Positions 13,619 through 63,228 of a stretch of DNA of 64,000 bases are shown piece after piece; the first letter of the stretch is position 1, and every line of letters begins with the position of its first letter. The notes under the pieces are model-generated. The model saw only the letters and a list, made by a program, of their open reading frames with translations, ran no database searches and was not told where the DNA came from. Position numbers and translations under genes: made by a program. The DNA is from Patescibacteria group bacterium UBA2773 (GTDB lineage Bacteria > Patescibacteriota > Minisyncoccia > Moranbacterales > DUUL01). The stretch is from contig DEIN01000003.1 of assembly GCA_002352465.1 (NCBI GenBank), forward strand, positions 24,933-88,932. Direction: 5' to 3'.

Positions 13619-13654
13619 TTATTGTTAAGTAATTAGTTACTTAACAAACATTTT

Positions 13655-15880: not shown

Positions 15881-15986
15881 TAATCAATGCCCAACGTTCA
15901 TTCAATAAATCAATATTCTGATATTAAAGTGGATGGATATTGAAAATTAAGTATCAGTTATTTATTAAAAATCTCAATTTTCAAAA

Positions 15987-16093
15987 TTTATAAACTTTAT
16001 AAACTTTCAACTTTATTTACCCTGTTAAATAATTTTAGTAAAACTAAAATTAGACCGAATCTATTTAACAGGGTGAACTTTCTGACTCATTTA
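15987..16093. repeat. about 110-bp direct repeat, copy 2 (perfect 12-bp inverted repeat CCCTGTTAAATA / TATTTAACAGGG 30 nt apart), between frr and rseP
   Basis: see copy 1; ends exactly at the frr stop codon. Confidence 0.7.
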
Positions 16094-19878: not shown

Positions 19879-20034
19879 TGCTAAAAAATAATAATCAAAA
19901 TTTTTAATATAATTCGAATATCAAATGAAATATACCAAACCAAAGTATTAAACAAGTAGTAAAAATAAAAATTGGATTTAAATTAAAGTCTAAAACAAAT
20001 AAAGGTTAAACACTTCATGCCATATTAGAATTAA

Positions 20035-20120
20035 AGAATTTAAGTATGATTTGAGGAAGATTTGAGTATCGAATGAGACGCACTGAAAAGTGCGTTGAAT
20101 GAGAAACGGAAAATCTAACA
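20035..20120 (+). repeat. GC-enriched structured intergenic repeat, copy E (family with 28023..28176, 32986..33095, 43005..43090, 58083..58256, 61070..61251)
   Basis: shares GATTTGAG x2 ... CGAATGAGACGCAC and CGGAAAATCTAACAAAAAAGCA with the other copies; internal hairpin GACGCAC-TGAAAA-GTGCGTT. Confidence 0.5.
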
Positions 20121-20145
20121 AAAAAGCATACTAAATTATTTGATT

Positions 20146-21441
20146 CTAAACATCCAACTTGTCGTAGTCTCTCATTACTAATTGTCCCTCAACCTGCTTC
20201 ATTGTCTCCATTACCACCGAAACCACAATCAAAATTCCTGTCCCACCAACTGTAATAGTTTGAATTCCAGTCAAACCTTGAATAATAAAAGGTAAAACAG
20301 CCACTGCTCCCAAAAACAAAGCTCCCGTTAAAGTAATTCTATTAACAATAAAGTTAAGATATTCCATTGTTGGTCGACCCGGTCTAATCCCAGAAATAAA
20401 TCCCCCTTGTCGCTGAAGATTCTCAGCAACTTTCTCTGGATTAAAGGTGACCGCAGTATAAAAATAAGTAAAAGCCACTACCAGCAAAAAATAAGCACTC
20501 CCATAGAACCATTGATTAGCCATCAAATCAGCCACCACTGAAGCATATTTAGCCACCCAATCGACTGAGCTGGTTGACAAAAAATTAGCAATCACACTTG
20601 GAAAAAGCATAATTGACATCGCAAAAATAATTGGAATAACTCCTGCCATATTAACTCGCAACGGCAAGCTTGAACCGCCACCCATTGATTTACCGTTTCT
20701 AGTTTGTCGAGCAAAAGTAATCGGAATATTTCTTTGTCCCTCAGTAATAAATACAATCGCCCCGATAGTCAAAATTGACAAAACTATTAGCCCCACATAA
20801 GACAAAATTTCAGCTGGATTCCAAGTTAAAATTAAATTATTAATCGCCGTTGGCAAAGCTGAAACAATTCCGGCAAAAATCAAAAGAGATACTCCATTCC
20901 CCAATCCCTTTTCAGTAATAATCTCTCCTAACCACATCAAAAATACTGTCCCAGCCGTAATAGTTGAAATTATTAAAATATATTGCAAAATATTTAAGTC
21001 GGCCATCATTCCTTGACTTCTTAGTAAAGAAATCATACTAAAAGATTGCAAAAGCGCTAAAGGCAAAGTCAACCAACGAGTCCAAAGATTAAATTTTTGT
21101 CGACCAGCTTCTCCTTCTTCTTTATATAACTTCTCCATTTTAGGAAAAATCATCGTCGAAAGTTGCATAATAATCGAAGCAGTAATATAAGGACCAACTC
21201 CAAGCATCACGATTGAAACATTTCGCAAACCTCCTCCAGAAAAAACATCCAACATTCCAAGCAGTTGATTGTTATCAAAAAAACTTTTCAAACGAGCAAT
21301 GTCAACTCCAGGAACTGGAATGTTAGCAGCTAACCGAAACACCACTAAAACGCCCAAAATAAACAATATCTTATTGCGAATTTCCTTGATTTGAAATATT
21401 TGTTTGATTTTGTTTGACATAAAGTAAGAAATGCTCAACAC
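20146..21441 (-). CDS. secY: preprotein translocase subunit SecY
   Basis: 431 aa, 10 TM helices, collinear with SecY; immediately downstream of rplO. Confidence 0.95.
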   Translation of the reverse strand: MLSISYFMSNKIKQIFQIKEIRNKILFILGVLVVFRLAANIPVPGVDIARLKSFFDNNQLLGMLDVFSGGGLRNVSIVMLGVGPYITASIIMQLSTMIFPKMEKLYKEEGEAGRQKFNLWTRWLTLPLALLQSFSMISLLRSQGMMADLNILQYILIISTITAGTVFLMWLGEIITEKGLGNGVSLLIFAGIVSALPTAINNLILTWNPAEILSYVGLIVLSILTIGAIVFITEGQRNIPITFARQTRNGKSMGGGSSLPLRVNMAGVIPIIFAMSIMLFPSVIANFLSTSSVDWVAKYASVVADLMANQWFYGSAYFLLVVAFTYFYTAVTFNPEKVAENLQRQGGFISGIRPGRPTMEYLNFIVNRITLTGALFLGAVAVLPFIIQGLTGIQTITVGGTGILIVVSVVMETMKQVEGQLVMRDYDKLDV

Positions 21442-21581
21442 TCAATATTAAACGTTTTCGCCTCAAATTTCCTCAGCGAAACAGGTATTCAATTCTCAAA
21501 TTTTCAACTAACAACAAGCGTTGAAACATTAAATATTTAAATATTGAATGGCTATTGGGTGTTGGTTATTGAATATTCTTA

Positions 21582-22046
21582 TTATAAACTATTTTTTTCA
21601 GAAAGTTCTTCTTTTTTGATATTTAAAACTTTTCCACCAATTTTTTCTATTTTTTCTTGAGCTTTTTTAGAAACTTCTAAATTTTCAATAGTAATTTTCT
21701 TAGTAAGTTCTCCTTCAGAAAGAATCTTAACTAGTTGGCTTTCTTTTCGAATCAATTTCTTTTCCTTTAAAGTTTGAATGGTTATTTTATCACCAGCCTT
21801 AAAATTTAATTCAAGTTTATTTAAATTGATTACTAATTTTTTCTCATTTCGAGATTTAAAACCCTTGTTCTTTTTAGTCTTTTGAATTAAAGTAGTTTTT
21901 CCACCTTCAAAAGTAGGCGCCTGAGAAGACCCCGATCGAGACTTTTGTCCTTTCATTCCTCGTCCAGAATAGGTGCCTTTTTTACCACCTCGTCCAACTC
22001 TTTTTCGACTAGCTTTTTTAGTAACTTGAAGTTCGTGAATCTGCAT
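21582..22046 (-). CDS. rplO: 50S ribosomal protein L15
   Basis: RKRVGRGGKKGTYSGRGMKGQKSRSG motif. Confidence 0.9.
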   Translation of the reverse strand: MQIHELQVTKKASRKRVGRGGKKGTYSGRGMKGQKSRSGSSQAPTFEGGKTTLIQKTKKNKGFKSRNEKKLVINLNKLELNFKAGDKITIQTLKEKKLIRKESQLVKILSEGELTKKITIENLEVSKKAQEKIEKIGGKVLNIKKEELSEKNSL

Positions 22047-22061
22047 AATAATATCTAATAT

Positions 22062-22676
22062 TTATTTAGTTGCTTCTTTCTTAGCCTTAACTGCTTTTTT
22101 AGAAGTTACTTTCTTAACCGTTTTTTTAACTTTAGGCTTATCGGAAATTTTTGGTTCCACTTTTTTAACAATCGCTTTTTTAAATTTAACGGCTATAGGT
22201 TTATTAACAATTTGCTTGCCTTCTAATTGATCCAAAGCTTTTAAAGTCGCCTTAGCAATATTTATTTTATTAGAAGAACCCAAAGATTTAGCGGTAATAT
22301 TTTTAACTCCAGCCAATTCAAAAATTAATCGCATCGCCCCACCAGCCACAATGCCCTTACCTTCTTTGGCCGGTTTAATCATCACTTGAGCTCCGCAAAA
22401 TCTTTCATCGACTCGATAAGAGATAGTAGAATCCAAACGTTTTACAATAATCATACTTTTTTTGGCGGCTTCCACTGATTTGTTAATCGCTCCAGCTACA
22501 TCAGTACCCTGAGCCACACCCAAACCAACCTTGCCTTTTCGATTTCCAATAATCATTGTCGCTCGAAAAGAAAATCTTCGACCACCTTTAACTACTCGAA
22601 CAACCCTAGCTAAATCCAAAAGTTTTTGATCAAATTCTGGTTTCTTATTCCTGTTGTTAAATCTCTTATTTGCCAT
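22062..22676 (-). CDS. rpsE: 30S ribosomal protein S5 (K-rich C-terminal extension)
   Basis: VVKGGRRFSFRATMIIGNRKGKVGLGVAQG motif; only a 15-bp gap to rplO, so no rpmD (L30). Confidence 0.9.
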   Translation of the reverse strand: MANKRFNNRNKKPEFDQKLLDLARVVRVVKGGRRFSFRATMIIGNRKGKVGLGVAQGTDVAGAINKSVEAAKKSMIIVKRLDSTISYRVDERFCGAQVMIKPAKEGKGIVAGGAMRLIFELAGVKNITAKSLGSSNKINIAKATLKALDQLEGKQIVNKPIAVKFKKAIVKKVEPKISDKPKVKKTVKKVTSKKAVKAKKEATK

Positions 22677-28022: not shown

Positions 28023-28176
28023 GTTATTCTAGAATTCCTCGTTTGGTCCATTTCTTTGTCAAATCCTGCGCTACTATTTGATGTGCAGTTTAGCACATCT
28101 CATACGTTGCTCAGATTTTCCTCGAAATACCCTCAAACGTGAAATCCTTGTTAGTTTTAAATAATTTAATAAAATC
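28023..28176 (-). repeat. GC-enriched structured intergenic repeat, copy A (sense orientation) occupying the 154-bp rplB-rpsS spacer
   Basis: minus strand reads ...TTCGAGGAAAATCTGAGCAACG...GATGTGC-TAAACT-GCACATC...AGGATTTGACAAAGAAATGGACCAAACGAGG then ATG of rpsS; same motifs as copies B-F. Confidence 0.55.
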
Positions 28177-30760: not shown

Positions 30761-31108
30761 ATTATTTGAAATCTCTTTAGTTAATTTACAATTTTAAAAC
30801 CGAATATCTTGGTAAGGCTTTCAATCAACTCCGACTGGCCTTATAAAAATATTCGGCATTGGAGGCGCTGTTTTTAAGCACCATTCCTACTGCAATTTCA
30901 CATTATTAATTATATTTTCTTCAAATTTTCTTGAATTAGCCTCAGCTAGTCCTACGAAAATTATTTAAAAAATCTAATTAATAATGTGCAATTTCGTAAA
31001 CGAAATGGTTCTTACAAACAACCCCTGGAGCTAATTTAGTTTCCCACCAGGGACTTAAACTAGTATTTATTCTTAAAATAAAATTTTATTGATTTAAAAT
31101 GGATTGAT

Positions 31109-31169
31109 TTAAAAGTTTTTGTTTTGAGGACAATTCACGAAAGAATTGCACCAAAACAAAAACTTTTAA
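31109..31169 (-). promoter_or_regulatory. long perfect hairpin abutting the rpsJ stop codon (18-bp stem plus inner 6-bp stem and ACGAAAG loop)
   Basis: TTAAAAGTTTTTGTTTTG (31109-31126) pairs with CAAAACAAAAACTTTTAA (31152-31169); loop contains CAATTC-ACGAAAG-GAATTG. Confidence 0.5.
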
Positions 31170-31170
31170 A

Positions 31171-31524
31171 TTACATTTTAATTTCAATTCCCACACCAGC
31201 TGGCAAATCAAGATTAGTTAAATCTTCAATTGTCTTATCAGTTGGTTCTAAGATATCAATTAATCTCTTATGGGTTCTAATCTCAAACTGATCTCGGCTA
31301 TCTTCGTGAACGAAAGTAGATTTGTTGACAGTTATTTTCTTAATCGCAGTTGGCAATGGCACTGGTCCAATGATTTTGACTCCAGTTCTTTGAGCAGTTT
31401 CAACTATTTTTCTAACTGACTGATCAATAACTTTATTGTCATAAGCCTTAACTTTGATCCGAATTCTTGATTGAACTTCTTGATCTTTTTCGTTCTCTGC
31501 TTTAATGTTCTCTGGTTTGGTCAT
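31171..31524 (-). CDS. rpsJ: 30S ribosomal protein S10
   Basis: [10 protein letters not shown]...THKRLIDI core. Confidence 0.9.
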
Positions 31525-32036: not shown

Positions 32037-33020
32037 CTATTTATTCTCGATAATTTCTTCAATATTATAATAGCTTTCTTTTCGACCTTGATAAAAAATT
32101 TTTATTAAAATGTCCGCCAATAAACCAAAAACTAGAAATTGAACCCCCATCAAAACCATAAAAATTCCAATTGTAGGCCAAATTCGATTTATGATTGATC
32201 CACTCAAGAGAACTCTTTCAATAAACATCCAAACCAATAAACCCGAACCAACTACAAAAGAAATCATTCCGATAAAACCGAATAAATGCAACGGTCTATT
32301 GGAAAATTTTCGCCAAAACCAAACTCCCACTAAATCCAAAAGACCTTTCACTAATCGAGTATAGTTATATTTCGTCACGCCAGCGGTTCTTGGTCGATGA
32401 TTGACTTTTATTTCTCCGATTTTAAACCCTTTAATTTTCAAAAAAGCTGGAATAAATCGATGCATCTCTCCATACAAATCAACGTTTCTGAAACATCCAG
32501 CTTTATAGGCCTTCAAGGAACAACCACTGTCATTAATTTGATCGTCAATCAAAATTTTTCTTAATTTATCCGCTCCCCAAGAAAGAAAATTTTTCACAAA
32601 AGAATCTTTTCGGTTTTTCCTCCAACCAGAAACGACATCAAAACCTTCGGCTAATTTTCTTAATAAATTAGGAATATCAGCTGGGTCATTTTGCAAATCT
32701 CCATCCATAGTAATTATTACATCTCCGTTAGAAGCCTTAATCCCAGCATCCATCGCTGCAGTTTGTCCAAAATTTTTCCTAAAAGCAATAATTTTAATTG
32801 GTTTTAATTTTTTAAGTTCAGCTAAAGTCCCGTCAGAGCTTCCGTCATCAATAAAAATAAACTCGCCCTTAAGGTGCTCTTTCTTGAAAACAGTTTTCAA
32901 TTCTTGATGAAGATTAGCCACATTTTTTTCTTCATCTTTTAAAGGAATAACGACTGAAATGAACATGATTGTTAAAATTAATTTTAAATTTTGAGCAAAA
33001 TTCGAGGCGAAATCGAGCAT
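32037..33020 (-). CDS. GT2 polyprenol-phosphate glycosyltransferase (DPM1/ArnC/GtrB-like) with C-terminal TM helices; true start probably Met at 32966
   Basis: MFISVVIPLKDEEKN...FIDDGSSDGT GT2 motifs; the first 18 annotated codons overlap repeat D. Confidence 0.75.
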   Translation of the reverse strand: MLDFASNFAQNLKLILTIMFISVVIPLKDEEKNVANLHQELKTVFKKEHLKGEFIFIDDGSSDGTLAELKKLKPIKIIAFRKNFGQTAAMDAGIKASNGDVIITMDGDLQNDPADIPNLLRKLAEGFDVVSGWRKNRKDSFVKNFLSWGADKLRKILIDDQINDSGCSLKAYKAGCFRNVDLYGEMHRFIPAFLKIKGFKIGEIKVNHRPRTAGVTKYNYTRLVKGLLDLVGVWFWRKFSNRPLHLFGFIGMISFVVGSGLLVWMFIERVLLSGSIINRIWPTIGIFMVLMGVQFLVFGLLADILIKIFYQGRKESYYNIEEIIENK

Positions 33021-33095
33021 TTAGTGAAACGTACTGAATAGCACAGTGAACAAGAAGCGGAGATTTCAACAAAGAAGTTTGCCAATTTTTAAAAG
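32986..33095 (+). repeat. GC-enriched structured intergenic repeat, copy D
   Basis: TTTTGAGCAAAATTCGAGGCGAAATCGAGCA...AGCGGAGATTTCAACAAAGAAGTTTGCCAA, same motifs as the family. Confidence 0.5.
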
Positions 33096-33099
33096 TCTT

Positions 33100-34197
33100 T
33101 CAGCCACGACCAATGATGCCGATAAGGAGACCTAAACACGCCATCAACCCATTTATAATCCAAAATCTAACCGTCACCTTAGTTTCCGGCCAACCCTTAG
33201 CTTCAAAATGATGATGAATTGGAGCAGCTAAAAAAACTTTCTTCTTGAAAATCTTTTTAGAGAACAATTGAACAACAACTGATCCAGATTCTAAGAAATA
33301 AATAAAAACCACGAAAGGAAGAACTACTACTGCATTAGTCAACATCGCCACTACGCCCAAAGTCGCCCCCAATGAAACGGCACCAGTATCTCCCATAAAA
33401 AAACGAGCTGGATAAAAATTAAACCACAGGAAAGCTAACAAGGAACCACTAATAACTGCACAAAAAGCCGCAATATCAAAACGACCTTGAATAAAGGCAA
33501 TTAAAGTAAAAATGGAAAAAGCTTGAATTAAAATACCAGCGTTCAAACCATCCAATCCATCTGTTTCATTGGAAGAAACCGCCATAGTAGTGATAATTCC
33601 GATAAAAAGAGGAATATACCAAAAACCGATTTTAAAATCACCTACTGCTGGAATATGAATAAAATTTGACTCTAATTTAACAAAAAACCACCAGGCTCCC
33701 ACAGCAGCAATCAAAATTAACCAACCGAACCGCACTACAAACCTCATTCCGCCTCCTTTATTATCGCCAATACCCTTAATACTCATATAATCATCCGCTA
33801 AACCTAAAACAGCAGTTGCTATCAAAGCAAATAGTAACAACCAGGTTTGATTTCGACTTAAAAAATTCAAACGATTAAACCACTGTTCGCCAGTTAAGTC
33901 GGCCATAAACGGCGCTAAAAAAAACATTCCGACCATTAAAATCAAAACCGTTCCCCAAATAACAATTCCACCCATCGTCGGTGTTCCCTTCTTATGAGCG
34001 TGCAATTTACTAACATAATTTAGTTTATTGCCATCAACCGATTTTTTTTTAATTTTAATTTTAATTCTATTTTTGTATAAAAAATGAGTCAAGATCGGAG
34101 TTATCACCATAGTCAAAACAAAAGCCATCACGCATAAAACAATGATCTTGGCAACAGTCAACACTTCTGGAATAGTTTGAATTTGAGCAATAAACAT
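33100..34197 (-). CDS. mraY: phospho-N-acetylmuramoyl-pentapeptide transferase
   Basis: KKGTPTMGG, DGLDGL and HHHFE motifs. Confidence 0.9.
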   Translation of the reverse strand: MFIAQIQTIPEVLTVAKIIVLCVMAFVLTMVITPILTHFLYKNRIKIKIKKKSVDGNKLNYVSKLHAHKKGTPTMGGIVIWGTVLILMVGMFFLAPFMADLTGEQWFNRLNFLSRNQTWLLLFALIATAVLGLADDYMSIKGIGDNKGGGMRFVVRFGWLILIAAVGAWWFFVKLESNFIHIPAVGDFKIGFWYIPLFIGIITTMAVSSNETDGLDGLNAGILIQAFSIFTLIAFIQGRFDIAAFCAVISGSLLAFLWFNFYPARFFMGDTGAVSLGATLGVVAMLTNAVVVLPFVVFIYFLESGSVVVQLFSKKIFKKKVFLAAPIHHHFEAKGWPETKVTVRFWIINGLMACLGLLIGIIGRG

Positions 34198-37532: not shown

Positions 37533-37699
37533 ATTTAATATTTAATATTTAATATTTAGTTGATTGCCTAATGACATTTTAACAAATAAACATAGTTATA
37601 ACAACAAAATAGAAACTATTCCGCCACAATTAACAATCAACATTCATTCAATAACCAATGCAACAACATTCGTTAATATTGATTATTGAAATATTAAAA

Positions 37700-37735
37700 G
37701 TTGAATAGATACCTGCCTGCCGGTAGGTAGGTAGG
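37700..37735. repeat. GC-rich hairpin ACCTGCCTGCC-GGTAGGTAGGT downstream of dnaJ (terminator-like; motif shared with 5' ends of repeats B and C and with 59750..59776)
   Basis: near-perfect inverted repeat with G-U pairs in an AT-rich spacer. Confidence 0.35.
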
Positions 37736-37826
37736 TTAAATATTGATTATTAAGTTTTTATTCACCTTATATTTATATTTTTTGTCTTCTTTACAATTTT
37801 TTTATTTTTTATTCACTTAAAAAATA

Positions 37827-42919: not shown

Positions 42920-43004
42920 ATTTCTAAAGATTTAATACTCTCTTTGATTAGCCAAATTCAATTAAAACTTTTTTTACTAAAAACCTATTTTTAGTATAGT
43001 TCGA

Positions 43005-43090
43005 GACAAATTTTCAATTACGTCTGAAATGTGCTGAAATGGCACATTGAAAAGCAACTGAAAATTTAACGAAAAAATACACAAAAAAAT
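43005..43090 (+). repeat. degenerate copy F of the structured intergenic repeat family
   Basis: GTTCGAGACAAATTT...GAAATGTGC-TGAAATG-GCACATT hairpin...CTGAAAATTTAACGAAAAAATACACAAAAA. Confidence 0.35.
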
Positions 43091-43096
43091 GACTTT

Positions 43097-43468
43097 TTAA
43101 ATGTGTAAATATTTTATATGTCTTATCGAGACCTTCCTGGTTTTCAAATTAAAAATTACTCCAACAAAATCAACTCGCCACTCCGCTGATATTAAGTTTC
43201 TTTCAATTAAAAAATACTGAGATATTTTAAATATTTTTTTCAATTTTGAATGGCTAACACTTTCTTCTGGCACCACCGCTTGACCATAGCTAATTCTAGT
43301 TTTCACTTCCACAAAAACAATGGGACCTCTTGGATCTTCAACAATCAAATCGATTTCGCCCAATCGATAGCCTTTTCGATTATAATAATTTTTTTCAATA
43401 ATCTTATAACCGTTAGCAACTAAATAATTTCCCGCCAAAACTTCTCCTTTAAATCCAAGTTTTTGCAA
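43097..43468 (-). CDS. yraN: YraN family (UPF0102) PD-(D/E)xK-like endonuclease
   Basis: GEIDLIV...VFVEVKTR motif. Confidence 0.7.
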   Translation of the reverse strand: MQKLGFKGEVLAGNYLVANGYKIIEKNYYNRKGYRLGEIDLIVEDPRGPIVFVEVKTRISYGQAVVPEESVSHSKLKKIFKISQYFLIERNLISAEWRVDFVGVIFNLKTRKVSIRHIKYLHI

Positions 43469-48835: not shown

Positions 48836-49413
48836 TTATTTAAAACTGTTACTTCGTCGCTTCTTCCGATGGAATTTAAGGGCAAACCAATGAGCCTCAT
48901 TGTTAGATAAAAGAATATCCCTTTCACTTTTTTTGATAGCTTCGGCGTTGCCTAAAAAATCTCGAACTTTATGATGATTATCTTTCACTGCGACCACCGC
49001 CGCAATCACGTCTTTTCTAGTTAATAATGATTGAGTAGCTGCGTGATGCATTCGCTCCACTTCAGCATTAATACTAGCTTCTTTTTCAATATAAGTGTCC
49101 GAGGCCGACACATAAGCCTCCGGCTGATAGTAGTCATAGTAAGAAACAAAATAATGAACAGCATTATTGGGGAAAAATTCCTTATATTCTTGAGCTAATT
49201 GAGCCGCTAAAGTTTTATTATGAGCAACCACTAAAGTTAGTTTGTTAATTTTTTTTATCAAATTAGCAACCGTAAAAGTTTTCCTGAACCCGTCACTCCT
49301 AAAAGCGTTTGTTGCTCAACGCCAACTTGCAAACCGTCTGTCAAAGATTGAATCGCTACTCCTCGATCCCCAGCTGGTTTATATTTTGAAATTAATTTAA
49401 ACTTAGTTTTCAT
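48836..49413 (-). pseudogene. uvrB: uvrB remnant: N-terminal about 115 residues only, frameshifted in an A-run and truncated
   Basis: [16 protein letters not shown]...LLGVTGSGK | [28 protein letters not shown]...[23 protein letters not shown]...[11 protein letters not shown] collinear with the UvrB N-terminus; frame break inside Walker A at GGAAAAC (A4 where A5 is needed); homology stops after DVIAAVVAV. Confidence 0.65.
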
Positions 49414-49680
49414 TTAATGTTTTTATCATCAATTTAATAGTGCGTTAAATGATAACATAAAAAACTAAAAAAACAATTAGCTACATTAGTATTCAAATTT
49501 TAAAATTCCAAAAATATTTTCTTCTATATAACTTTGAATTTAAAATTCCATATCCATTGAATGATTTAATAAAAAATAATCCGATTCTCCCGACTCATAA
49601 ACAAAAAAGGCCTCTGTCAAAAACTAAGACCCTTTTCTTTTTTGCAAATTATTTTTTTGAAACGATAAGAGTCTAAGACT

Positions 49681-52023
49681 TTAAGCTAAAATAGCCTTTA
49701 CTCGTCGAACACCCGCCGAAGAAGATTTTTCTTGAATAATTTTAAATAAACCTTTAATTTCGTTAGTGTTATCAATGTGAGGACCACCACAAATTTCTTT
49801 GGAATAATCACCAATAGTAAACACACTGACTAAATCGCCATATTTATTTTCAAAAGATCCGTGCGCACCAGCTTTTTGAGCTTCTTCTAAACTCATTTCT
49901 TCTTTAACAACAGTAGTTCCACTTTGAATAGCTTCGTTCACAAAATCTTCAACTGATTTTATTTGATCTTCGGTCAATTTATCGGGATGAGAAAAATCGA
50001 ATCGAATTCTTGCACCATTGATATTTGAACCTTTTTGAAAAACGTGATTTCCCAAAACTTTTCTAAGTCCTGCCAAAAGCAGATGAGCCACTGTGTGAAG
50101 TTGCTTAGTTTGCTCTTTAGTATCAGCCAATCCTCCTTTAAACATTCCAGCACTAGCCGTTCGAGAAAGCAATTGATGCCTTTCAAGTTCTTGCTGAAAA
50201 CTTTTTTCATCGACTCTTAATCCTTGCTCATGAGCTAAGTCACAAACCATTTCGATTGGAAATCCATAAGTTTGAAATAGATCAAAAGCTTCTTTTCCTG
50301 TAATCACTAAATCATTACCACTGTCAAAAATTCCTTCTTCTACTTTAATTTTTTGATCAGGTGTTCCTTTAATAAATTTTTCTAGAGCTAAAAAGCGATG
50401 AGAAATTTTGTTTTTCTCCTCTCCTAATTCAGCAAACGTTTTATCATAACCTTTAGGCATAAAAATTGGATCAAATCCAAAATCAGCATTGTTCTGTCCC
50501 TTTCGCTCTTCAGTTATTTGACCTTTCACTGAACCCTCAAAAAAAGAAATTTCTTTTCCATCAAAATAAGCAATCACACATTTAGCCTCAGCATTTCGAT
50601 TTTTATTTTCTGTCAAATCTAAAATCCCTTGAGTTCCTAAATATTTATCCAACCATTTAATTAAAGCTCCTGGAAAACCGTTCCAAGCTTCTAAATGGAG
50701 AGCTGTGTCTTCAACAATAATTGGTCTTTTTATCGATTTATAAGCTTCAATTATTTTATATTGAGCCACTTCTCGAGAATCAATCGCTTGAATTTCAGGT
50801 AAATTTGATTGATAAAAACTAAGACTCATCGAATCCTTAATTAAATCTTTGTATTCTTTGATTTTTTTAGGGTTAGAAGAAACTAAAACCACATCTTGCT
50901 TTTTGGAAATTATTTTTTCAAATTGTTTTAAGCCTTTTTCTAAAGTAGCTTGAAATTTTTGTTCTTCGTCTTTAATCACGTTTAAAATAAGCTTCTCACT
51001 CACTTCGGGGTAAATATCTTTATAAATTTCCTGAACAGCTGTCCCGATTTGCTCAGTAAATAAATAATCAATTCCCATTTTATTTGCTTCTCTAACAGCT
51101 CTTCTGATTAATCGTCTTAAAATATAACCTCGTTCGTTGTTTGAAGGCTTAATTCCATCAGCCACCATAAAAACCGAGGCTTTGATGTGATCAGCGATAA
51201 TTCTAAATGATTTTTTATTATCTTGATATTTTTTGTTTGATAGCTCTTCAATTCTTTTAATAATCGGCTGAAATAATTCTCCTTCATAATCATCTTTTAA
51301 TCCATTTAAAATTGCCACAATTCTTTCTAGCCCCATTCCAGTGTCAACATTTTGTTGAACAAGTTTTTGAAAAGATCCATCCACTGTTTTTTTATATTCC
51401 ATAAAAACATTATTCCAAATCTCAACCCATTTATTATTTTTTGGATCAAATTTTCTAGGAATTTCATTGGTATCACCAGTCCAATAAAAAATTTCGGTAT
51501 CTGGCCCACAAGGTCCAGTTTCGCTAGGAGGTCCCCACCAATTTTCGCTTTTAGGAAGCTTAGCAATTCGATCTTCTGAAAAACCTAGTTCTCTCCATTG
51601 CTCAAAAGACTCTTGATCAAAAGACGCATCATGATCTCCTTCAAAAACTGAAACTGCTAACCGCTCTCGATCCAATCCCAACCATTGAGAAGAAGTTAAA
51701 AATTCGCAACTCCATTGAATGGCTTCTTGCTTAAAATAGTCACCCAAAGACCAATTCCCCAACATTTCAAAAAAAGTATGATGAGTAACATCACCAACTT
51801 CTTCGATATCAATCGTTCGAATACATTTTTGAATATCGACCAATCGAATTCCTTGTGGATGTTTTTCTCCCATCAAATAAGGTACTAAAGGTTGCATCCC
51901 AGAACTTATAAACAAAGAAGTTGGATCATTTTCTGGTACTATCGAAAAAGAAGACAAAGCATTGTGTTTTTTTAATTCAAAAAATTTTATAAATTTTTGT
52001 CTCAATTCCTGAGCTTGAATCAT
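49681..52023 (-). CDS. alaS: alanine--tRNA ligase with inserted Ham1/RdgB (ITPase) domain; lacks C-Ala domain
   Basis: AlaRS catalytic core (HHTFFEMLGNWSLGDYF), editing domain (HTVAHLL..., CGGPH); residues about 376-553 = Ham1 domain (SNPKK, VEDTALHLEAWNGFPGALIKW, FGFDPIFMPKGYDKTFAEL, SHR). Confidence 0.85.
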   Translation of the reverse strand: MIQAQELRQKFIKFFELKKHNALSSFSIVPENDPTSLFISSGMQPLVPYLMGEKHPQGIRLVDIQKCIRTIDIEEVGDVTHHTFFEMLGNWSLGDYFKQEAIQWSCEFLTSSQWLGLDRERLAVSVFEGDHDASFDQESFEQWRELGFSEDRIAKLPKSENWWGPPSETGPCGPDTEIFYWTGDTNEIPRKFDPKNNKWVEIWNNVFMEYKKTVDGSFQKLVQQNVDTGMGLERIVAILNGLKDDYEGELFQPIIKRIEELSNKKYQDNKKSFRIIADHIKASVFMVADGIKPSNNERGYILRRLIRRAVREANKMGIDYLFTEQIGTAVQEIYKDIYPEVSEKLILNVIKDEEQKFQATLEKGLKQFEKIISKKQDVVLVSSNPKKIKEYKDLIKDSMSLSFYQSNLPEIQAIDSREVAQYKIIEAYKSIKRPIIVEDTALHLEAWNGFPGALIKWLDKYLGTQGILDLTENKNRNAEAKCVIAYFDGKEISFFEGSVKGQITEERKGQNNADFGFDPIFMPKGYDKTFAELGEEKNKISHRFLALEKFIKGTPDQKIKVEEGIFDSGNDLVITGKEAFDLFQTYGFPIEMVCDLAHEQGLRVDEKSFQQELERHQLLSRTASAGMFKGGLADTKEQTKQLHTVAHLLLAGLRKVLGNHVFQKGSNINGARIRFDFSHPDKLTEDQIKSVEDFVNEAIQSGTTVVKEEMSLEEAQKAGAHGSFENKYGDLVSVFTIGDYSKEICGGPHIDNTNEIKGLFKIIQEKSSSAGVRRVKAILA

Positions 52024-54576: not shown

Positions 54577-54788
54577 AAAAATTCCTCCTTTCTCATTTTT
54601 TATTATTAAAATATATTAAATATTCGGTTTATTTTTCCAAACGATCGTTTTTAGGCATAGTTTATAAATGAAAGATTAGAATTTCAAGATAAATTTTTTG
54701 AATAATTTTCGAATGACTAGCAACTGCTAATCAGAGGAAATTTAAGAAAAATTTAACTGAAATTACAATTTTTCAATGCAAATTATGT

Positions 54789-57388: not shown

Positions 57389-57952
57389 TTAAATCAATTT
57401 ATCAAAAAGTTCAATAATTTTTTCTTGAAAATTTTCTTTAGTTGATTCGTTGATAATCATAAAATCAGCCATCGCAATTGGACCTCCTTTTTGAGTACCT
57501 TCAATTTCCGTCCAATCTCGAGTTTTAAATTCTTGCCAATCCGCAATTGGTCGTTCTTTAATTCGCTTTTTTAAACGCTCAAAACGAGTATTTGGCGAAG
57601 CATAAACCGCTATTACAATAAAATTATCACCAAATTCTTTTTTCATAATCTTATACTCATCCCAGCTATAAAGACTTTCTGCCAAAACAACCAAGCTACT
57701 TTCTAGCAATTTTTTAATTTTAGGCACTGAAAATTTAGCATAGACCCCCATTCCATGTTCAGCCCGCAAAGACTCTCTAACTATTCGTTCATTTTCATAA
57801 TTAACTTCAATCTCACGTTTTTTAATTTCATCGAAAGTCACTTCCCCAAAATAAACTTTAGGCACTGAATATTTTTCTTGAATTTTTTTGACTACTTCTG
57901 TTTTCCCAGAACCAGCCATACCAACAATGGCGATGACTTTTTTATCTTTCAT
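57389..57952 (-). CDS. P-loop nucleotide/nucleoside kinase (CoaE/UPF0200-like)
   Basis: Walker A IAIVGMAGSGKT, 187 aa. Confidence 0.4.
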   Translation of the reverse strand: MKDKKVIAIVGMAGSGKTEVVKKIQEKYSVPKVYFGEVTFDEIKKREIEVNYENERIVRESLRAEHGMGVYAKFSVPKIKKLLESSLVVLAESLYSWDEYKIMKKEFGDNFIVIAVYASPNTRFERLKKRIKERPIADWQEFKTRDWTEIEGTQKGGPIAMADFMIINESTKENFQEKIIELFDKLI

Positions 57953-58082
57953 AATAATTATTCTTTTAATTAATTTTCAATAAATTTTATTTTTAAAAAA
58001 TAAGGGTGCAAGATACAAGATACAAACAAATCTCAATATCTAAATTAAAAATATCAAGTTTCAAAAAACCGTAGATTTTTGG

Positions 58083-58256
58083 TTTTTAACCTGCCGGCCG
58101 ATCCACTTCGTCATAGCTTCAGCGAGGCAAATAAGCATAAGACTTTTTTATTTGAGTGCAGTTCGAGGAAAATCTGAGCACCGAGCGAAATGTATTGAAT
58201 GATACGACAAGCGAGTGACAGAAGATTCGACAAAGAAATGTGCCAAACAAAAAAGT
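58083..58256 (+). repeat. GC-enriched structured intergenic repeat, copy B (longest; flanked by AGACTTTTTT / AAAAAAGTCT inverted termini)
   Basis: AACCTGCCGGCCG...TTTGAGTGCAGTTCGAGGAAAATCTGAGCACCGAGCGA...GATTCGACAAAGAAATGTGCCAAAC; ends at the murD stop. Confidence 0.55.
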
Positions 58257-59645
58257 CTACAATTTATTAACTATATTCCTAAATTGTCGTCCTCTATCAA
58301 ACTCATTCTCAAACATCCCAAAACTAGCAAAACCAGGCGACAATAAAACTAATCCACCTTGTTCTGCTTCAATATAAGCCTCTTTAATCGCTTTATCAAA
58401 TTCCGAATAAATTCCATTGATTTTATCTTCACCACCTAACTCAATAATTTGTTTTTCAATTTTTTTAGCAATCTTACTATCCAAAATAAAAATGTTTTTA
58501 ACATATTTAGATTGAGAAATTTTTTTCAAAAAAATAGTTGGGTCCAATTTCTTGCTAGCCCCACCCATAATTAAATTAATCGGTCGCATAAAAGAGTTCA
58601 CCCCAGCAATAGCTGATTCGGGAGTAGTAGCTGTTGTATCATTATAGAAATCAATACTCTTTAAAGTTCGAACCAATTCAAGCCGATGAACAACACCTTT
58701 AAAATTTATCAAAGTTTTTTTTATTTTTTTTAAGTCAATTCCAATAACCGTCGCTAAAGCCACCGTCGCTAAAATATTATCTAAATTATGAGCACCCTTT
58801 AAATTAAAGCTTTTTATATCACAGACTTCCCTTTCGTCTCCTTCAAAACAAACAAAAATTTTTCCACTTCGAACAAAAACCACTCGATCACCTTCGATTT
58901 CTTTATTTGAATAATAAACCACCTGAGCAGAAGCTTCTTCTCCCATTTCTCTAGTAATTTTATTGTCATAATTGAAAATAGCAAAATCCTCCGAAGATTG
59001 ATTAATATAAACCTGTTTTTTATCCTCAATATATTCTTCCATCGAAGCATAATGGTTAAGATGATCCGGGTAAATATTAGTCACTAAAGCGTATTTAGGA
59101 CTTTTTTTATTCTTTTTCAAGCCGGCCAACCGCCAAGAAGACATCTCAAAAACAACAAAAGTACTTGGGGTAATTTTTTTCAATTTATCCATCACCGCTT
59201 CTTGTCCAATTCCAACTTTAGAGATTTTCTTTCCAGCATCAGCTAAGACTTGGGCAATCAAACTAGCAGTAGTGGTTTTACCTTTAGTACCAGTCACTCC
59301 AATTATTTTTGAACTTTCACAATGTTCAAAGAAAAGACTAGAATCCATTTCAATTGGAACTTTATTTTTTAAAGCAATTTGAATATACTTATTACCCCAA
59401 GAAACAGTCGGATTTTTTATCACTAAATCAACTTTCTGAAAATCCTCCGGGCGATGATGACCGGTGACGACAACCAAGTTTTTAAAACTTTTAAGCTCGT
59501 CCAACGTGGTTTTCAACGCTGATTCTTTTTTTATATCGGTAGCGATGACTTTGGCACCTTGCTCCAACAACCATTTGATCATATTTTTTGAACCTCCATG
59601 TAAACCAATCCCCATCACCGTCACTTTCTTGTTTTTTAAATTCAC
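58257..59645 (-). CDS. murD: UDP-N-acetylmuramoylalanine--D-glutamate ligase
   Basis: N-terminal KVTVMGIGLHGGS Rossmann, Mur ligase P-loop GVTGTKGKTTT. Confidence 0.85.
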   Translation of the reverse strand: MNLKNKKVTVMGIGLHGGSKNMIKWLLEQGAKVIATDIKKESALKTTLDELKSFKNLVVVTGHHRPEDFQKVDLVIKNPTVSWGNKYIQIALKNKVPIEMDSSLFFEHCESSKIIGVTGTKGKTTTASLIAQVLADAGKKISKVGIGQEAVMDKLKKITPSTFVVFEMSSWRLAGLKKNKKSPKYALVTNIYPDHLNHYASMEEYIEDKKQVYINQSSEDFAIFNYDNKITREMGEEASAQVVYYSNKEIEGDRVVFVRSGKIFVCFEGDEREVCDIKSFNLKGAHNLDNILATVALATVIGIDLKKIKKTLINFKGVVHRLELVRTLKSIDFYNDTTATTPESAIAGVNSFMRPINLIMGGASKKLDPTIFLKKISQSKYVKNIFILDSKIAKKIEKQIIELGGEDKINGIYSEFDKAIKEAYIEAEQGGLVLLSPGFASFGMFENEFDRGRQFRNIVNKL

Positions 59646-59749
59646 GTTAAAAATTTAAGACTAAAGTTTAAGCACCAAACCCCAAATAATAAATTACAAA
59701 TCACAATTTTCAAAATCCAAAACAAAAATTTTAGTTTTAAATATTAATG

Positions 59750-59776
59750 CTTACCTGCCTGCCAGTAGGCAGATTT
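59750..59776. repeat. GC-rich hairpin ACCTGCCTGCC-AGTA-GGCAG(ATTTGG) downstream of gap
   Basis: same ACCTGCCTGCC motif as 37700..37735 and the 5' ends of repeats B and C. Confidence 0.35.
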
Positions 59777-59827
59777 GGAATTTGTGATTTTATATTCGTA
59801 ATTTAATATAGCTCAACTTGAAATAAT

Positions 59828-60826
59828 TCATTTATTATTCATTTTAAGAGCTAAATCAATCACTCTCTCTGAGTATCCCCATTCATTGTCATACCAACCT
59901 ACCACTTTAACTAAGTTTCCTCCAACCACTTTAATCAAATCAGTTGGAACAATCACTGAATAAGTACTTCTAAGAATATCGCTCGAAACTAAAGGCTCAG
60001 TAGTGGCTTGAAGAATGTTTTTCATTGAACCAGCTTCCGCTTCTTCAAAAGCTTGAGTAATTTCTTCTTTAGTCACGTCTTTTTTTAAAAGCACTACCAC
60101 ATCAGAAATTGATCCAGCTGGAGTCGGCACTCGATAAGCCATCCCATCAAAAACTCCTTTTAATTCAGGCACCACCAAAGTTGCTGCCAAGGCTGCCCCT
60201 GTAGAAGTTGGAACCACATTACAAGCTGCTGCTCTACCTCTTCGCATATCTTTTTTAGATGGTCCATCGACCAAAGATTGAGTAGAAGTATAACTATGAA
60301 TCGTTGACATTAATGATTTTTCTACTCCGAATTTATCTTCTAAAACTTTCATCATCGGAGCAATACAATTAGTAGTGCAAGAGGCATTAGAAATAATATC
60401 ATCAGAAACTTCTAATTTATCATTATTAACTCCGCAAACAATAGTTTTGATTGTTTCATCTTTGGTTGGCGCAGAAATCAAAACTTTTTTTGCTCCCGCT
60501 TTCAAATGACCTTCTGCTCCCGTTCGATCAGTAAAAAAGCCAGTGGCTTCAACCACCAAATCAATTTCCAATTCCGCCCAAGGCAAATCAGCTGGATTTT
60601 TTGCCGAAAAAAACTTAATTTGTTTTCCGGCCACCATCAAATTTCCGTCTTTGACTTCCGCTTTATTTTTATAAATTCGATAAACCGTATCATAATTCAA
60701 AAGATAGGTTAAATTTTCCAATTCCGCCAAATCATTAATTGCCACAATTTCTATTTCTGGATTATCAATTGCTATTTTTAAAACCGCCCTCCCAATCCTC
60801 CCAAACCCATTTATCGCAATTTTCAT
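59828..60826 (-). CDS. gap: type I glyceraldehyde-3-phosphate dehydrogenase
   Basis: NGFGRIGR NAD motif, catalytic SCTTNC. Confidence 0.9.
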   Translation of the reverse strand: MKIAINGFGRIGRAVLKIAIDNPEIEIVAINDLAELENLTYLLNYDTVYRIYKNKAEVKDGNLMVAGKQIKFFSAKNPADLPWAELEIDLVVEATGFFTDRTGAEGHLKAGAKKVLISAPTKDETIKTIVCGVNNDKLEVSDDIISNASCTTNCIAPMMKVLEDKFGVEKSLMSTIHSYTSTQSLVDGPSKKDMRRGRAAACNVVPTSTGAALAATLVVPELKGVFDGMAYRVPTPAGSISDVVVLLKKDVTKEEITQAFEEAEAGSMKNILQATTEPLVSSDILRSTYSVIVPTDLIKVVGGNLVKVVGWYDNEWGYSERVIDLALKMNNK

Positions 60827-61069
60827 ATTTGTTTTGTTATTAATAATAAGTTTATAAAGTTCTTAATGTCGTTCAAGGACTTTTCTTAAACCTGAAAATA
60901 TTTTAAATATTTCAACAAACTCATAATAAAAAATAATTAAATTTTTCCATTTTTTTATAAGTTTACGTAATTAATTACGTAATCATCTATTACTTTTTAA
61001 AACGCCCTCTTAAAATTGTATATTTCCAATTAATTAAAATCATCGGGGTTTAATAATTTGGGTGCAATT

Positions 61070-61251
61070 CAACCTGCCTCCGCTATAATTAAGACAAGGA
61101 GCAATCTAAATATCAGACAAAACACAGAAACTTAAGATTTTGAGTGCAGTTCAAGGCAGATTTGAGCAACGAGCGAGGCACACTAGCTCAGTACGTCGAG
61201 CGAATAGCGGAAAATCCAACGAAGAGATGTGCCAAAATATAAAGTTTCAGT
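61070..61251 (+). repeat. GC-enriched structured intergenic repeat, copy C
   Basis: AACCTGCCTCCGC...TTTGAGTGCAGTTCAAGGCAGATTTGAGCAACGAGCGAGGCACAC...AGCGGAAAATCCAACGAAGAGATGTGCCAAAA; ends at the gyrB stop. Confidence 0.55.
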
Positions 61252-63228
61252 CTAGACGTCGAGGTTTTGGACAGACTTGGCGTGGGCTTGGATGAATTTC
61301 TTCCTCGGTGCCACTTCACTCCCCATCAAAATATCAAATATTTCATCCGCTTTCTCCCCATCTTCAACTGTAATCTGGTTCATCATTCGATTTTCTGGAT
61401 TCATAGTGGTATCCCAAAGTAAACTTGGATTCATTTCTCCTAGACCCTTGTAGCGTTGAAGAGAAATTCCAGTAGATTTTTTAAGATCTAAACCTTCCTC
61501 TTCATTTTCCGAAATTTCAACGTCTTTACCAACTATTTTTTTCAAAATACGATCCTTTTCTTCTTCGTCATAAGCATAATAAACTTGTTTCCCTTTCTTA
61601 ACTGCAAACAAAGGAGGTTGAGCCGCATAAACATATCCAGCTTCAATCAAGCCCTCAAAATGTCGATAAAATAAAGTCAATAATAAAGTTCTGATATGAG
61701 AACCGTCCACGTCAGCATCAGTCATAATTACAATTCTGTGATATCTCAATTTTGCTAAATTCATTTCCGCTCCAATTCCAGCACCCAAAGCAATCACAAT
61801 GTTTTTGATTTCCTGAGAAGTCAACATCCGATCCAATCGAGCTCTTTCCACATTCAAAATTTTTCCTCGTAAGGGCAAAATCGCTTGAAATTGTCGGTCT
61901 CTCCCTTGCTTGGCACTGCCACCAGCAGAATCTCCCTCCACAATGAACAATTCACTTTTACTGGCATCTCGACTAGAACAATCAGCTAATTTTCCAGGTA
62001 AAGTCATTCCTTCCATTGCGCCTTTTCTAACCACCGCCTCTTTAGCGGCTTTGGCGGCTAATCGAGCCTTGGAAGACAAAGCACAACGATTAATAATTGA
62101 CTTAGCTTCTTGCGGATTTTCATCAAAATACTCAATAAAAGCTTCATTCAAAACTGAATTCACAGCCGTCCTGGCTTCAGAGTTCCCCAATTTAGTTTTG
62201 GTTTGACCTTCAAATTGAGGTTCTTCTAATTTAACTGAGACAACTGCTGTTAAACCCTCTTTCACATCATCAGCAGTGAAATTGGGATCTTTTTCTTTCA
62301 GCAAATTATTCTTTTTAGCATAATCATTGATGCTTCTAGTTAAAGCCGTTCTAAAACCAGTTTCATGCATTCCGCCTTCTGTCGTAGGAATATTATTAGC
62401 GAAAGAAATAATTCGGTCTTTCATCGACATACTAAACTGCAAAGAAGCTTCCACTAAAACCCCTTGGACTTGTTTTTCAACATAAAAAATATTCTCATTA
62501 ACAACTTCTTTACCTTTGTTTAGATGTTTAACAAAAGATTTTATTCCACCATCAAAACAAAAACCAACCTTTTTATGAAGGTTTTCTTTTTCATTTCTTT
62601 TGTCTATTATTTTTAAATGAATGCCCTTGGTTAAATAGGCTTGTTCTCGTAAGTAGTTAATAATTTTGCTCCAATTCCATTCAATTTCTGGAAAAATTTC
62701 TGGATCTGGTTCAAAAGTAATAATTGTTCCGTGTTTTTTTGTTTCTCCTATTTTTTTCACTGGAGCTTGAACATCTCCTCGACAATATTCCTGTGCCCAA
62801 ATTTTACCATTTTGATAAACCTCAGCTCGAGTCCAAATACTCAAAGCATTCACCACTGAAACACCTACCCCATGTAAACCACCAGAGACCTTGTATCCAC
62901 CTCCACCGAACTTACCTCCAGCGTGCAAACGCGTCATTACTGTTTCTAAAGTCGAAACTCCAGTTTGCGGATGCTTCTCGACTGGAATTCCTCGTCCTTC
63001 ATCAATCACTCGAATTTGATTGCCCGGCAAAATATGAGTTTCGATATAAGTTCCGTTGCCAGTCATCGCCTCATCAATAGAGTTAGCCACTACTTCCCAA
63101 ACCAAATGATGCAGACCTTCCAATGAAGTTCCTCCTATATACATTCCTGGTCTTTTTCTAACTGGCTCTAATCCCTCTAGTACCTGAATCGATTCAGCCG
63201 TATATTCCTGTGTTTGTTTCTTTCCCAT
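61252..63228 (-). CDS. gyrB: DNA gyrase subunit B
   Basis: GHKL ATPase motifs, Toprim EGDSAGG, 658 aa. Confidence 0.95.
   Translation of the reverse strand: MGKKQTQEYTAESIQVLEGLEPVRKRPGMYIGGTSLEGLHHLVWEVVANSIDEAMTGNGTYIETHILPGNQIRVIDEGRGIPVEKHPQTGVSTLETVMTRLHAGGKFGGGGYKVSGGLHGVGVSVVNALSIWTRAEVYQNGKIWAQEYCRGDVQAPVKKIGETKKHGTIITFEPDPEIFPEIEWNWSKIINYLREQAYLTKGIHLKIIDKRNEKENLHKKVGFCFDGGIKSFVKHLNKGKEVVNENIFYVEKQVQGVLVEASLQFSMSMKDRIISFANNIPTTEGGMHETGFRTALTRSINDYAKKNNLLKEKDPNFTADDVKEGLTAVVSVKLEEPQFEGQTKTKLGNSEARTAVNSVLNEAFIEYFDENPQEAKSIINRCALSSKARLAAKAAKEAVVRKGAMEGMTLPGKLADCSSRDASKSELFIVEGDSAGGSAKQGRDRQFQAILPLRGKILNVERARLDRMLTSQEIKNIVIALGAGIGAEMNLAKLRYHRIVIMTDADVDGSHIRTLLLTLFYRHFEGLIEAGYVYAAQPPLFAVKKGKQVYYAYDEEEKDRILKKIVGKDVEISENEEEGLDLKKSTGISLQRYKGLGEMNPSLLWDTTMNPENRMMNQITVEDGEKADEIFDILMGSEVAPRKKFIQAHAKSVQNLDV

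Follow-up and report, generated by a model that had tools for sequence, protein, structure and literature searches.

A ~123-bp non-autonomous DNA transposon with a covarying, strand-asymmetric hairpin is widespread in Patescibacteria

Classical bacterial MITEs are intergenic, are often co-transcribed with their neighbors and have orientation-dependent effects (PMC3184786). Among them, the ERIC/IRU, Correia (NEMIS/CREE) and RUP elements are, like the family described here, imperfect palindromes of 100-160 bp with terminal inverted repeats and target duplications (PMC3184786). The closest described analogue is bcr1, a group A interspersed repeat of the Bacillus cereus group. It has 5-bp direct repeats at its ends, transcripts of it are known, and compensatory changes keep its RNA fold (PMC3184786). 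Both bcr1 and the present family are non-coding, about 120-155 bp long, associated with 5-bp direct repeats and patchily distributed among relatives; in both, compensatory changes maintain the fold and some copies lose stability (PMC3184786). However, bcr1 belongs to another host phylum, its sequence is presumably unrelated, and it forms a cruciform-like pair of stem-loops, whereas the present element folds into one rod in which purine loops recur periodically.

ERIC/IRU, Correia and RUP elements duplicate the dinucleotide TA, whereas 5 bp are duplicated here, and each is confined to one genus or family, whereas the present family spans several candidate phyla; to our knowledge, neither a strand-asymmetric fold with tandem G.A mismatches nor a siting at stop codons with a bias of about 10:1 has been reported for any of them. 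REP/BIME sequences are likewise palindromes that occur in large numbers in the intergenic DNA 3' of genes and have been proposed to function as hairpins of single strands and to protect mRNA 3' ends, but REPs are 20-40 nt long, lack target duplications and are RAYT-linked, in contrast to the 123 bp and 5-bp duplications found here. Integron attC sites are also reminiscent of the present element: they are imperfect hairpins directly after stop codons, their structure is recognized on one strand, and they have conserved extrahelical bases and a replication-related orientation bias. The element described here differs in having no core sites, housekeeping genes as neighbors, and target duplications, so that the resemblance may serve as an analogy only, for a strand-specific DNA hairpin that imposes an orientation. 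The genomes of CPR/Patescibacteria are regarded as highly streamlined, and we know of almost nothing on their non-coding DNA, mobile elements and RNA biology, nor of any regulatory RNA characterized in them. A literature search returned no description of MITEs, structured repeats or this motif in Patescibacteria; as far as could be found, the family is apparently new, its kind (MITE) being already known.

The window analyzed here is one whole stretch of 64,000 nucleotides (64 kb), to whose numbering all positions refer unless a relative is named. A repeat search of the window returned four direct copies (20039, 32990, 58151 and 61139) and an inverted copy at 28026-28137. A covariance model (CM) built from six window copies, which have a mean identity of 65% across about 130 alignment columns, was scanned over the entire window without filters and scored six full copies of the family at 85-127 bits (E <= 3e-19; Table 1). 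Outside the copies the scores stay below 19 bits, with the sole exception of 31104-31170 (23.1 bits), a reverse-strand echo of the short copy G. In total, the window holds six full copies, each 122-124 nt long, together with a short derivative and no fewer than one remnant, a density of 7-8 copies per 64 kb or about one per 8 kb. The short derivative, copy G, consists of the outer stem and TTTTGAG...CCAAAA flanking a replaced short hairpin; the stretch labeled H is probably a decayed remnant of the family, an assignment made with low confidence. No ORF of at least 60 aa lies inside any window copy.

Table 1. Copies of the repeat family in the 64-kb window, and one neighboring stretch that lies outside the family
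Feature	Position	Strand	Length (nt)	CM score (bits)	Fold	Location and remarks
Copy A	20026-20148	+	123	126.7	-28.2 kcal/mol (forward), z -7.05	directly after secY (Pfam)
Copy B	28029-28150	-	122	120.5	-34.3 kcal/mol, z -6.4	rplB-rpsS spacer
Copy C	32977-33099	+	123	121.2	z -0.95	directly after the stop of an mraY-like GT4 gene (33100-33102)
Copy D	42977-43099	+	123	85.1	z -3.15	degenerate
Copy E	58138-58259	+	122	123.2	z -1.4	the copy of the finding in the preliminary description
Copy F	61126-61249	+	124	116.4	z about -1	2 nt short of the gyrB stop (61252-61254)
Copy G	31108-31170	+		41.8 (match 31108-31174, E 5.7e-8)		short derivative
Remnant H (probable)	54668-54780	+		22.7 (E 0.005)		between a HIT-domain gene and an rpsU-like gene
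5' stretch outside the family	58083-58137	+				shares just AACCTGCC with 61071-61078

The six full copies, the short copy and the probable remnant bear out the preliminary description of this DNA, which had proposed a family of at least seven GC-enriched, structured intergenic repeats. The enrichment in GC is modest, with 0.28-0.43 in the six full copies and 0.25 in the short copy G versus about 0.30 for the genome. Copies E and F had been drawn at 58083-58256 and 61070-61251, spans that take in 55-56 nt on the 5' side which do not belong to the family. These two added stretches have just the 8-mer AACCTGCC in common, and nothing corresponding to them exists in the remaining copies or in about 130 relatives. 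Neither the AACCTGCC block that had been taken as the 5' part nor the stand-alone GC hairpins that had been connected with the family belong to the element. The termini AGACTTTTTT...AAAAAAGTCT, described as bracketing copy B, correspond to the outer stem, which covaries and is present in all copies.

The proximity to stop codons, already noticed for each copy, is now defined more sharply. The genes next to the copies are secY, rplB/rpsS, rpsJ, the mraY-like GT4 gene, a UPF0102 gene, a murD-like ligase gene and gyrB (identified with Pfam, rpsJ via the relative L106), and all protein-coding ORFs flanking the copies lie on the minus strand. Copies A, D and E overlap the complement of a stop codon: copy A, whose forward strand is antisense to secY, ends in a CTA (20146-20148) complementary to the secY stop TAG, the terminal TTA of D (43097-43099) is the complement of the UPF0102 stop codon, and the terminal CTA of E (58257-58259) that of the murD-like ligase stop TAG. 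Copies C and G abut a stop codon, in the case of G that of rpsJ (S10; 31171-31173), and F ends 2 nt away from one. Copy B, the sole sense-oriented copy in the window, comes 26 nt after the stop of rplB; its end is 6 nt short of the rpsS ATG, and a GAGGA lies within its 3' outer stem.

The family has the following architecture: TAGGAC(C/T)T, 5 variable nucleotides, a 97-nt core that runs from TTTGAG to CCAAA, 5 complementary nucleotides and A(A/G)GT(C/T)CTA. The terminal inverted repeats TAGGAC(C/T)T...A(A/G)GT(C/T)CTA are present, together with a covarying extension of 5 bp, and helix 1 is 91% paired. The feet of the hairpin read TAGGACTT/AAGTCCTA. The window copies retain recognizable versions of these ends, for example TAAGACTT...AAGTCTA; in copy E the outer stem is made up of TAAGACTTTTTTA and CAAAAAAGTCTA.

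The entire element is a single long imperfect hairpin. RNAalifold predicts 40 pairs from the six window copies, and compensatory changes occur in 24 of these. In an alignment of 113 distinct copies, which was fitted by the model but in which the near-invariant length of the 97-nt core limits alignment artefacts, standard pairs occupy 93.5% of the cells versus 73.6% when partners are shuffled and 32-40% when they are slid, and double-sided changes occur in 39 of the 40 pairs. The most conserved positions are the unpaired ones (TTTGAG, TTCGAGG, GAGCA, CGAGCGAG in both arms, GCGGAG, ACAAAGAA and CCAAA): across candidate phyla, the conservation of the loop nucleotides exceeds 90%, and the stems covary. 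The internal loops are purine-rich and conserved, with GAG units about every 11 nt in the 5' arm, and the two CGAGCGAG octamers face each other across the arms, giving two tandem G.A mismatches.

The two strands are not equivalent. On the TTTGAG...CCAAA strand, here called forward, G.U pairs outnumber A.C combinations by 238 to 61, and by 166 to 40 within the lineage of the window, which comprises the window and four related assemblies. In this lineage, the mean fold is -41.1 kcal/mol for the forward strand versus -30.7 for the reverse strand, the forward strand folding better in 55 of 57 copies. Because the purine loops and the tandem G.A mismatches are conserved, a near-continuous rod forms on the forward strand only, which is also where wobble is tolerated. 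The structure matches no family of Rfam 15; the single gathering-level match in the window is a tRNA, and a permissive Rfam scan of 57950-61300 returned nothing overlapping copies E or F.

Relatives were searched for in a collection of species-representative genomes, using as a key a degenerate 30-nt pattern of the 5' arm, which favors well-conserved copies. This pattern matches at least 105 stretches, in which the model confirms at least 128 copies (123 + 5). Among the matches listed, the family occurs in at least about 25 Patescibacteria assemblies; the confirmed hosts are MAGs labeled as Patescibacteria or as one of its candidate phyla (Magasanik-, Moran-, Kerfeld-, Azam-, Yanofsky-, Doudna- and Saccharibacteria), unlabeled bins and four 'Bdellovibrionales' bins, and no confirmed copy lies in a non-CPR or viral contig. 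Pattern matches in Legionella, Schlesneria, Ruminococcus, Actinomyces, Bacteroidota and others have no model match and are due to chance; a single match in a viral contig was not confirmed by the model either.

These relatives disclose what kind of element the repeats are. JBAZQK01 and JACRFU01 contain near-identical copies with sharp ends. Such young copies are 123 or 166 bp long; in the longer variant, the core and the 3' outer stem are separated by an inserted GC-rich hairpin. Target-site duplications, proposed as a check in the preliminary description, are clear: perfect 5-bp duplications flank 28 of 36 canonical copies from JBAZQK01, JACRFU01 and a few other assemblies, 4 of 5 positions match in two more, and the next 5 nt outward, taken as a control, match in none of the 36. 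The duplicated 5-mers are AT-rich and follow no strict consensus. Furthermore, other small palindromic elements are nested within copies: L046 has one in the apical loop, L032 and paralogues have one in the 3' arm, and in the relative L016 a nested element interrupts the copy at the same secY site as copy A. Another small element, at L003:5709, has a different interior between the same ends, and a solo end is found at L026:5319. Presence and absence alternate at individual sites: an element directly follows gyrB in L074/L108, L109, L110/L111 and L114 and is absent in L112/L113, and full copies of L012 stand opposite mere decayed remnants at the same sites in the window. The repeats are therefore old copies of a ~123-bp non-autonomous DNA transposon (MITE) that is widespread in Patescibacteria. 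For the six window copies themselves, own duplications are not detectable (0-4 of 5 matches), and their transposon origin is supported by the architecture that they share with the young copies.

The 5-bp duplications imply insertion by a transposase that makes a 5-nt staggered cut in the target. An autonomous partner did not turn up in about 0.75 Mb, made up of 8-kb loci around the pattern matches, where no end pair lies 0.7-3 kb apart and no solo end lies beside a large ORF; this is a weak negative, and the 5-bp stagger is the sole clue to the transposase family. Many accepted MITE families are likewise without a known autonomous partner.

In the lineage of the window, the copies lie between the stop of a gene and the upstream region of the next gene, and their orientation is strongly biased. 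With simple ORF calls of at least 80 aa, the stop of a convergent gene is found 2-22 nt from the CCAAA end in 32 of 57 elements, inside or just beyond the 13-nt 3' outer stem in all 32; only 3 of 57 have a stop 50 nt or less from the 5' end. The stop is on the CCAAA side in 6 of the 7 window copies. In this lineage the forward strand runs antisense to the gene upstream, which often uses the element's terminal TAG as its stop codon. In the minority orientation, exemplified by copy B and its ortholog in L075, the elements lie within operons and their 3' end is a few nucleotides before the next ATG. Genomes with young copies differ in this respect: in JBAZQK01 the bias exists, the convergent stop being on the 3' side in 14 of 21 copies and near the 5' end in 4, and JACRFU01 has no orientation bias. 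The orientation also follows the local GC skew: in 51 of 63 copies the forward strand lies on the strand richer in C. Skew is, however, confounded with gene direction; the two disagree in only eight cases, of which six go with the GC skew and two with gene direction.

Resident copies show signs of both constraint and decay. Copies C and E are partly decayed and D is intermediate; three of the six full copies fold no better than shuffled sequences, and the z values of about -1 for C, E and F indicate that part of the window set is decaying. The copies in the lineage of the window are old: their duplications are no longer visible, and some have decayed or been deleted. They are also dispensable, as none follows gyrB in L112/L113 and decayed stretches in the window correspond to full copies in L012. 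Elements at the same site in at least two relatives are 62-82% identical, versus 52-55% (the level of shuffled sequences) for the adjoining non-coding flank and 67-89% for the adjoining coding DNA. However, six of nine same-site pairs are no more alike than random family members (mean identity 0.61), and at the gyrB site the elements are 60% identical between the window and a genome whose GyrB is 94% identical. This low likeness may be due to saturation under constraint, to gene conversion or to insertion more than once. Further same-site counterparts are a degenerate copy at L012:2327-2465, at the site of copy D, and the ortholog of copy B in L075, which is 81% identical, a reciprocal best match, and accompanied by a second, truncated copy in tandem.

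Changes within pairs were counted in seven contrasts, in five of which a reciprocal best match or a coherent series makes the orthology clear. In these five (74-83% identity), 28 of 33 changed pairs are still paired, versus about 33% in a neutral simulation; in all seven contrasts, 59 of 67 changed pairs are kept, a value that none of 2000 simulations reached. Changes between Watson-Crick and G.U pairs number 18 versus 6 between Watson-Crick and A.C, and this holds for antisense-oriented copies too. Pairing is therefore preserved in vertically inherited copies.

The preliminary description had left the choice between MITE- or REP-like mobile repeats, small structured RNAs and 3'-UTR stability or termination elements. 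Terminal inverted repeats, 5-bp duplications, nesting and the presence or absence at given sites support a MITE and not REP; the strong covariation and strand preference uphold a structured nucleic acid, as a fold; and a simple 3'-UTR terminator or stabilizer does not fit, as there is no T-run and, in most copies, the strand that folds better runs antisense to the gene upstream. We consider it highly probable that these observations are explained, as a whole, by a MITE that forms a covarying rod and whose antisense orientation is kept by the loss of harmful insertions. The element would be inserted by a transposase supplied in trans that cuts with a 5-nt stagger, and its propagation or persistence would require the hairpin as a single strand, whether of DNA or of RNA. 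Purifying selection, gene conversion among copies, or both may keep the resident copies structured. Insertions that place the stable forward rod and its GAGG motifs in the mRNA and in the lagging-strand template would be more harmful or less stable and would be lost, leaving the orientation bias. In the orientation that is retained, the mRNA would bear the weaker complementary hairpin, starting at the stop codon.

Two aspects fit less easily with a purely selfish element. Standard DDE cut-and-paste transposition needs no strand-specific hairpin, so that the asymmetry is not explained by the chemistry that the duplication implies. Furthermore, conservation of pairing in situ is what a host function would predict, and the selfish reading may therefore be incomplete. 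It could be imagined, as a possible though distinctly less probable reading of the sequences, that the transposon has spread the rod and that resident copies have been domesticated, serving the host through their forward strand. As an RNA module, the rod would form the first part of divergent or antisense transcripts from the AT-rich promoter region of the next gene; it would expose them to a double-strand-specific RNase or stall them and so protect the upstream gene at its 3' end, while the mRNA would carry only the weaker hairpin. As DNA, it would be a hairpin of one strand with a part in replication or recombination. The 28 of 33 changed pairs kept in vertically inherited copies against a neutral third, wobble changes that favor the forward strand even in antisense-oriented copies, conservation of the elements where the adjoining non-coding DNA is saturated, the orientation of 32 to 3 with its fixed position at stop codons, and loops that are more than 90% conserved across candidate phyla between covarying stems all speak for domestication. 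Of the stand-alone GC hairpins, the one at 37711-37737 likewise has its better fold on this (+) strand, unlike the one at 59753-59776. On the other hand, the 5' flanks contain no conserved promoter or -10/-35 at a fixed distance, as would be expected of a separate small RNA with a promoter of its own, and promoter-like sites are not enriched at the elements. A T-run is absent after the hairpin, the copies are dispensable and three of the six full ones in the window are poorly folded. Moreover, with about 100 copies per genome, gene conversion among them could give the appearance of purifying selection. The more specific claim, that the 97-nt rod is a strand-specific functional structure at the 3' ends of CPR core genes, spread by a transposon, often supplying the stop codon and acting either against antisense transcription or as a DNA hairpin on a replication strand, appears somewhat more doubtful still.

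In contrast to these forward-strand readings, the feature under selection could be the hairpin in the upstream transcript, which would terminate it or stop 3'-to-5' exonucleases, a role proposed for REP, ERIC and comparable repeats. The position immediately 3' of stop codons (32 of the 57 lineage copies, 6 of 7 in the window) is what such an mRNA 3'-end element would show; the reverse strand does fold, at a mean of -30.7 kcal/mol, and the element fills nearly all the space from the stop codon to the next promoter region. The wobble, however, points to the other strand, as forward G.U, which corresponds to C.A in the mRNA, exceeds A.C by 4 to 1, and by 18 to 6 in orthologs. Moreover, neither strand has a T-run past the hairpin, although the genome does possess a canonical terminator with a GC stem and a T-run, at 13599-13625, and one copy is situated within the S10 operon, where termination would be harmful. 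A terminator scan of 42.5-62 kb returned no intrinsic terminator at D, H, E or F, with no T-run past either foot. Altogether, an mRNA 3'-end function seems improbable. Still far less credible is a mobile element of single-stranded DNA (REP/RAYT or IS200/IS605) or an attC-like site, in which the hairpin would be the substrate of a tyrosine or HUH enzyme. A strand-specific hairpin with conserved unpaired bases, an orientation that tracks GC skew (forward C-rich in 51 of 63) and a position just past stop codons are reminiscent of such elements, but perfect 5-bp duplications are not produced by these mechanisms and largely refute the idea. The duplications rule out an IS200/IS605-type element; a REP/RAYT palindrome is excluded by them together with the size of 123 bp instead of 20-40 bp and the absent GTAG/CTAC head. 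For attC, the sequences read contain no R''/R' core sites (RYYYAAC ... GTTRRRY) at the feet, and the neighbors (secY, rplB/rpsS, rpsJ, mraY-like, murD-like, gyrB) are core housekeeping genes, not cassettes. Template and variable repeats of a DGR were rejected as well, the differences between copies not being A-specific.

The combination of a strand-asymmetric, covarying rod with signs of constraint in situ provides a concrete case in which a MITE may have been domesticated. At a more practical level, the repeats are a likely cause of assembly and binning errors, and since the element can supply the stop codon, the ends of genes shift. Identical copies occur in bins of different candidate phyla from the same groundwater project, which reflects either recent transfer or mis-binning. 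The sharing of the family across candidate-phylum bins, partly as identical copies, suggests its use as a marker of horizontal exchange among episymbionts.

Three of the four 'Bdellovibrionales' bins are syntenic with the window, at 75-93% nucleotide identity. In the window, L15 directly follows S5 and L30 is lacking, which is a CPR trait, and the closest named proteins to its GyrB are those of Moranbacteria (77%). The S5-L15 arrangement without L30 and the nearest GyrB make the 'Bdellovibrionales' label doubtful; the lineage of the window is a relative of Moranbacteria.

The main element, a ~123-bp MITE, carries other small elements at loci fetched from other genome assemblies (L numbers; position after the colon). 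A second MITE-like element of ~165 nt (L032:4466-4630), whose ends TAGGGAC...GTCCCA resemble those of the main element, is nested in the 3' arm of several main-element copies, each time at the identical position. Paralogues occur in L016, L019, L066 and at L056:3352, with 75-95% identity across loci. Furthermore, small palindromic elements are inserted in the apical loop at L046 and L027, and this loop therefore tolerates cargo.

The short hairpins, rich in GC and based on ACCTGCC(T/G)(G/C)C, probably constitute a second, smaller family, mobile or REP-like in nature. Owing to G.T wobbles, the hairpin at 37711 is predicted to fold better antisense to the genes, with -21.5 kcal/mol for the + strand and -10.2 for the - strand. 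GC hairpins of a similar type (CCTGCCCGCC...GGCGGG) are found inside main-element copies of relatives: at L038:4006, in L096 and in a 166-bp variant from the assembly JBAZQK01.

Coordinates of the smaller elements and repeats
Feature	Position	Strand	Location
GC-rich short hairpin on ACCTGCC(T/G)(G/C)C	window 37711-37737	+	intergenic
GC-rich short hairpin on ACCTGCC(T/G)(G/C)C	window 59753-59776	+	intergenic
ACCTGCC(T/G)(G/C)C sites	window 58088-58097 and 61071-61080	+	intergenic
Small palindromic elements, ends CCCCGTTAC.../...GTAACGGGG	L046:6960-7110 and L027:2326-2542		main-element apical loop, JBAZQK01
112-nt direct repeat	window 14576-14687 and 15987-16098		both sides of ORF 14675-15880
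~40-nt motif	window 15864-15917, 21532-21585 (reverse), 37640-37700		intergenic

Copies of the main element link bins of different candidate phyla: L092 (JACRFM01, 'Kerfeldbacteria') has copies identical to those of JBAZQK01, and L098 (JACRAK01, 'Azambacteria') has copies of the same type as JACRFU01 ('Magasanikbacteria'). Either recent horizontal transfer or mis-binning of contigs caused by the repeats would account for this distribution; one of the two bin pairs comes from the same groundwater co-assembly. With regard to taxonomy, the genome collection gives the closest relatives of the window the label 'uncultured Bdellovibrionales', apparently a taxonomic error. Among named GyrB proteins the nearest homologs are those of Moranbacteria (77%), and in the window rplO (L15) lies 15 nt downstream of rpsE (S5) without an intervening rpmD (L30) (21582-22676), an adjacency typical of CPR genomes.

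Two intergenic regions of the window, the rpsJ-rplC spacer (30761-31170) and the region downstream of alaS (49262-49680), are unusually long for so compact a genome (~410-420 nt), and they may hold decayed main elements. In the relative L077 a full main element lies directly 3' of alaS, whereas no recognisable main-element copy is present in the corresponding region of the window. An unusual fusion or insertion is seen in the alanyl-tRNA synthetase gene itself (49681-52023, - strand): after the catalytic core and before the SAD domain at the C terminus, it encodes an entire Ham1/ITPase-like domain (residues 378-552; Pfam PF01725, E 3e-43).

Finally, the window harbours two further repeats. The two units of the 112-nt direct repeat are 93% identical. 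The ~40-nt motif, ATTCAATAA(C/T)CAA..C.CAA....C...ATT.A.TA....AATATT, is present in three intergenic regions, among them the rplO-secY spacer, and it could have a regulatory or promoter-associated role.
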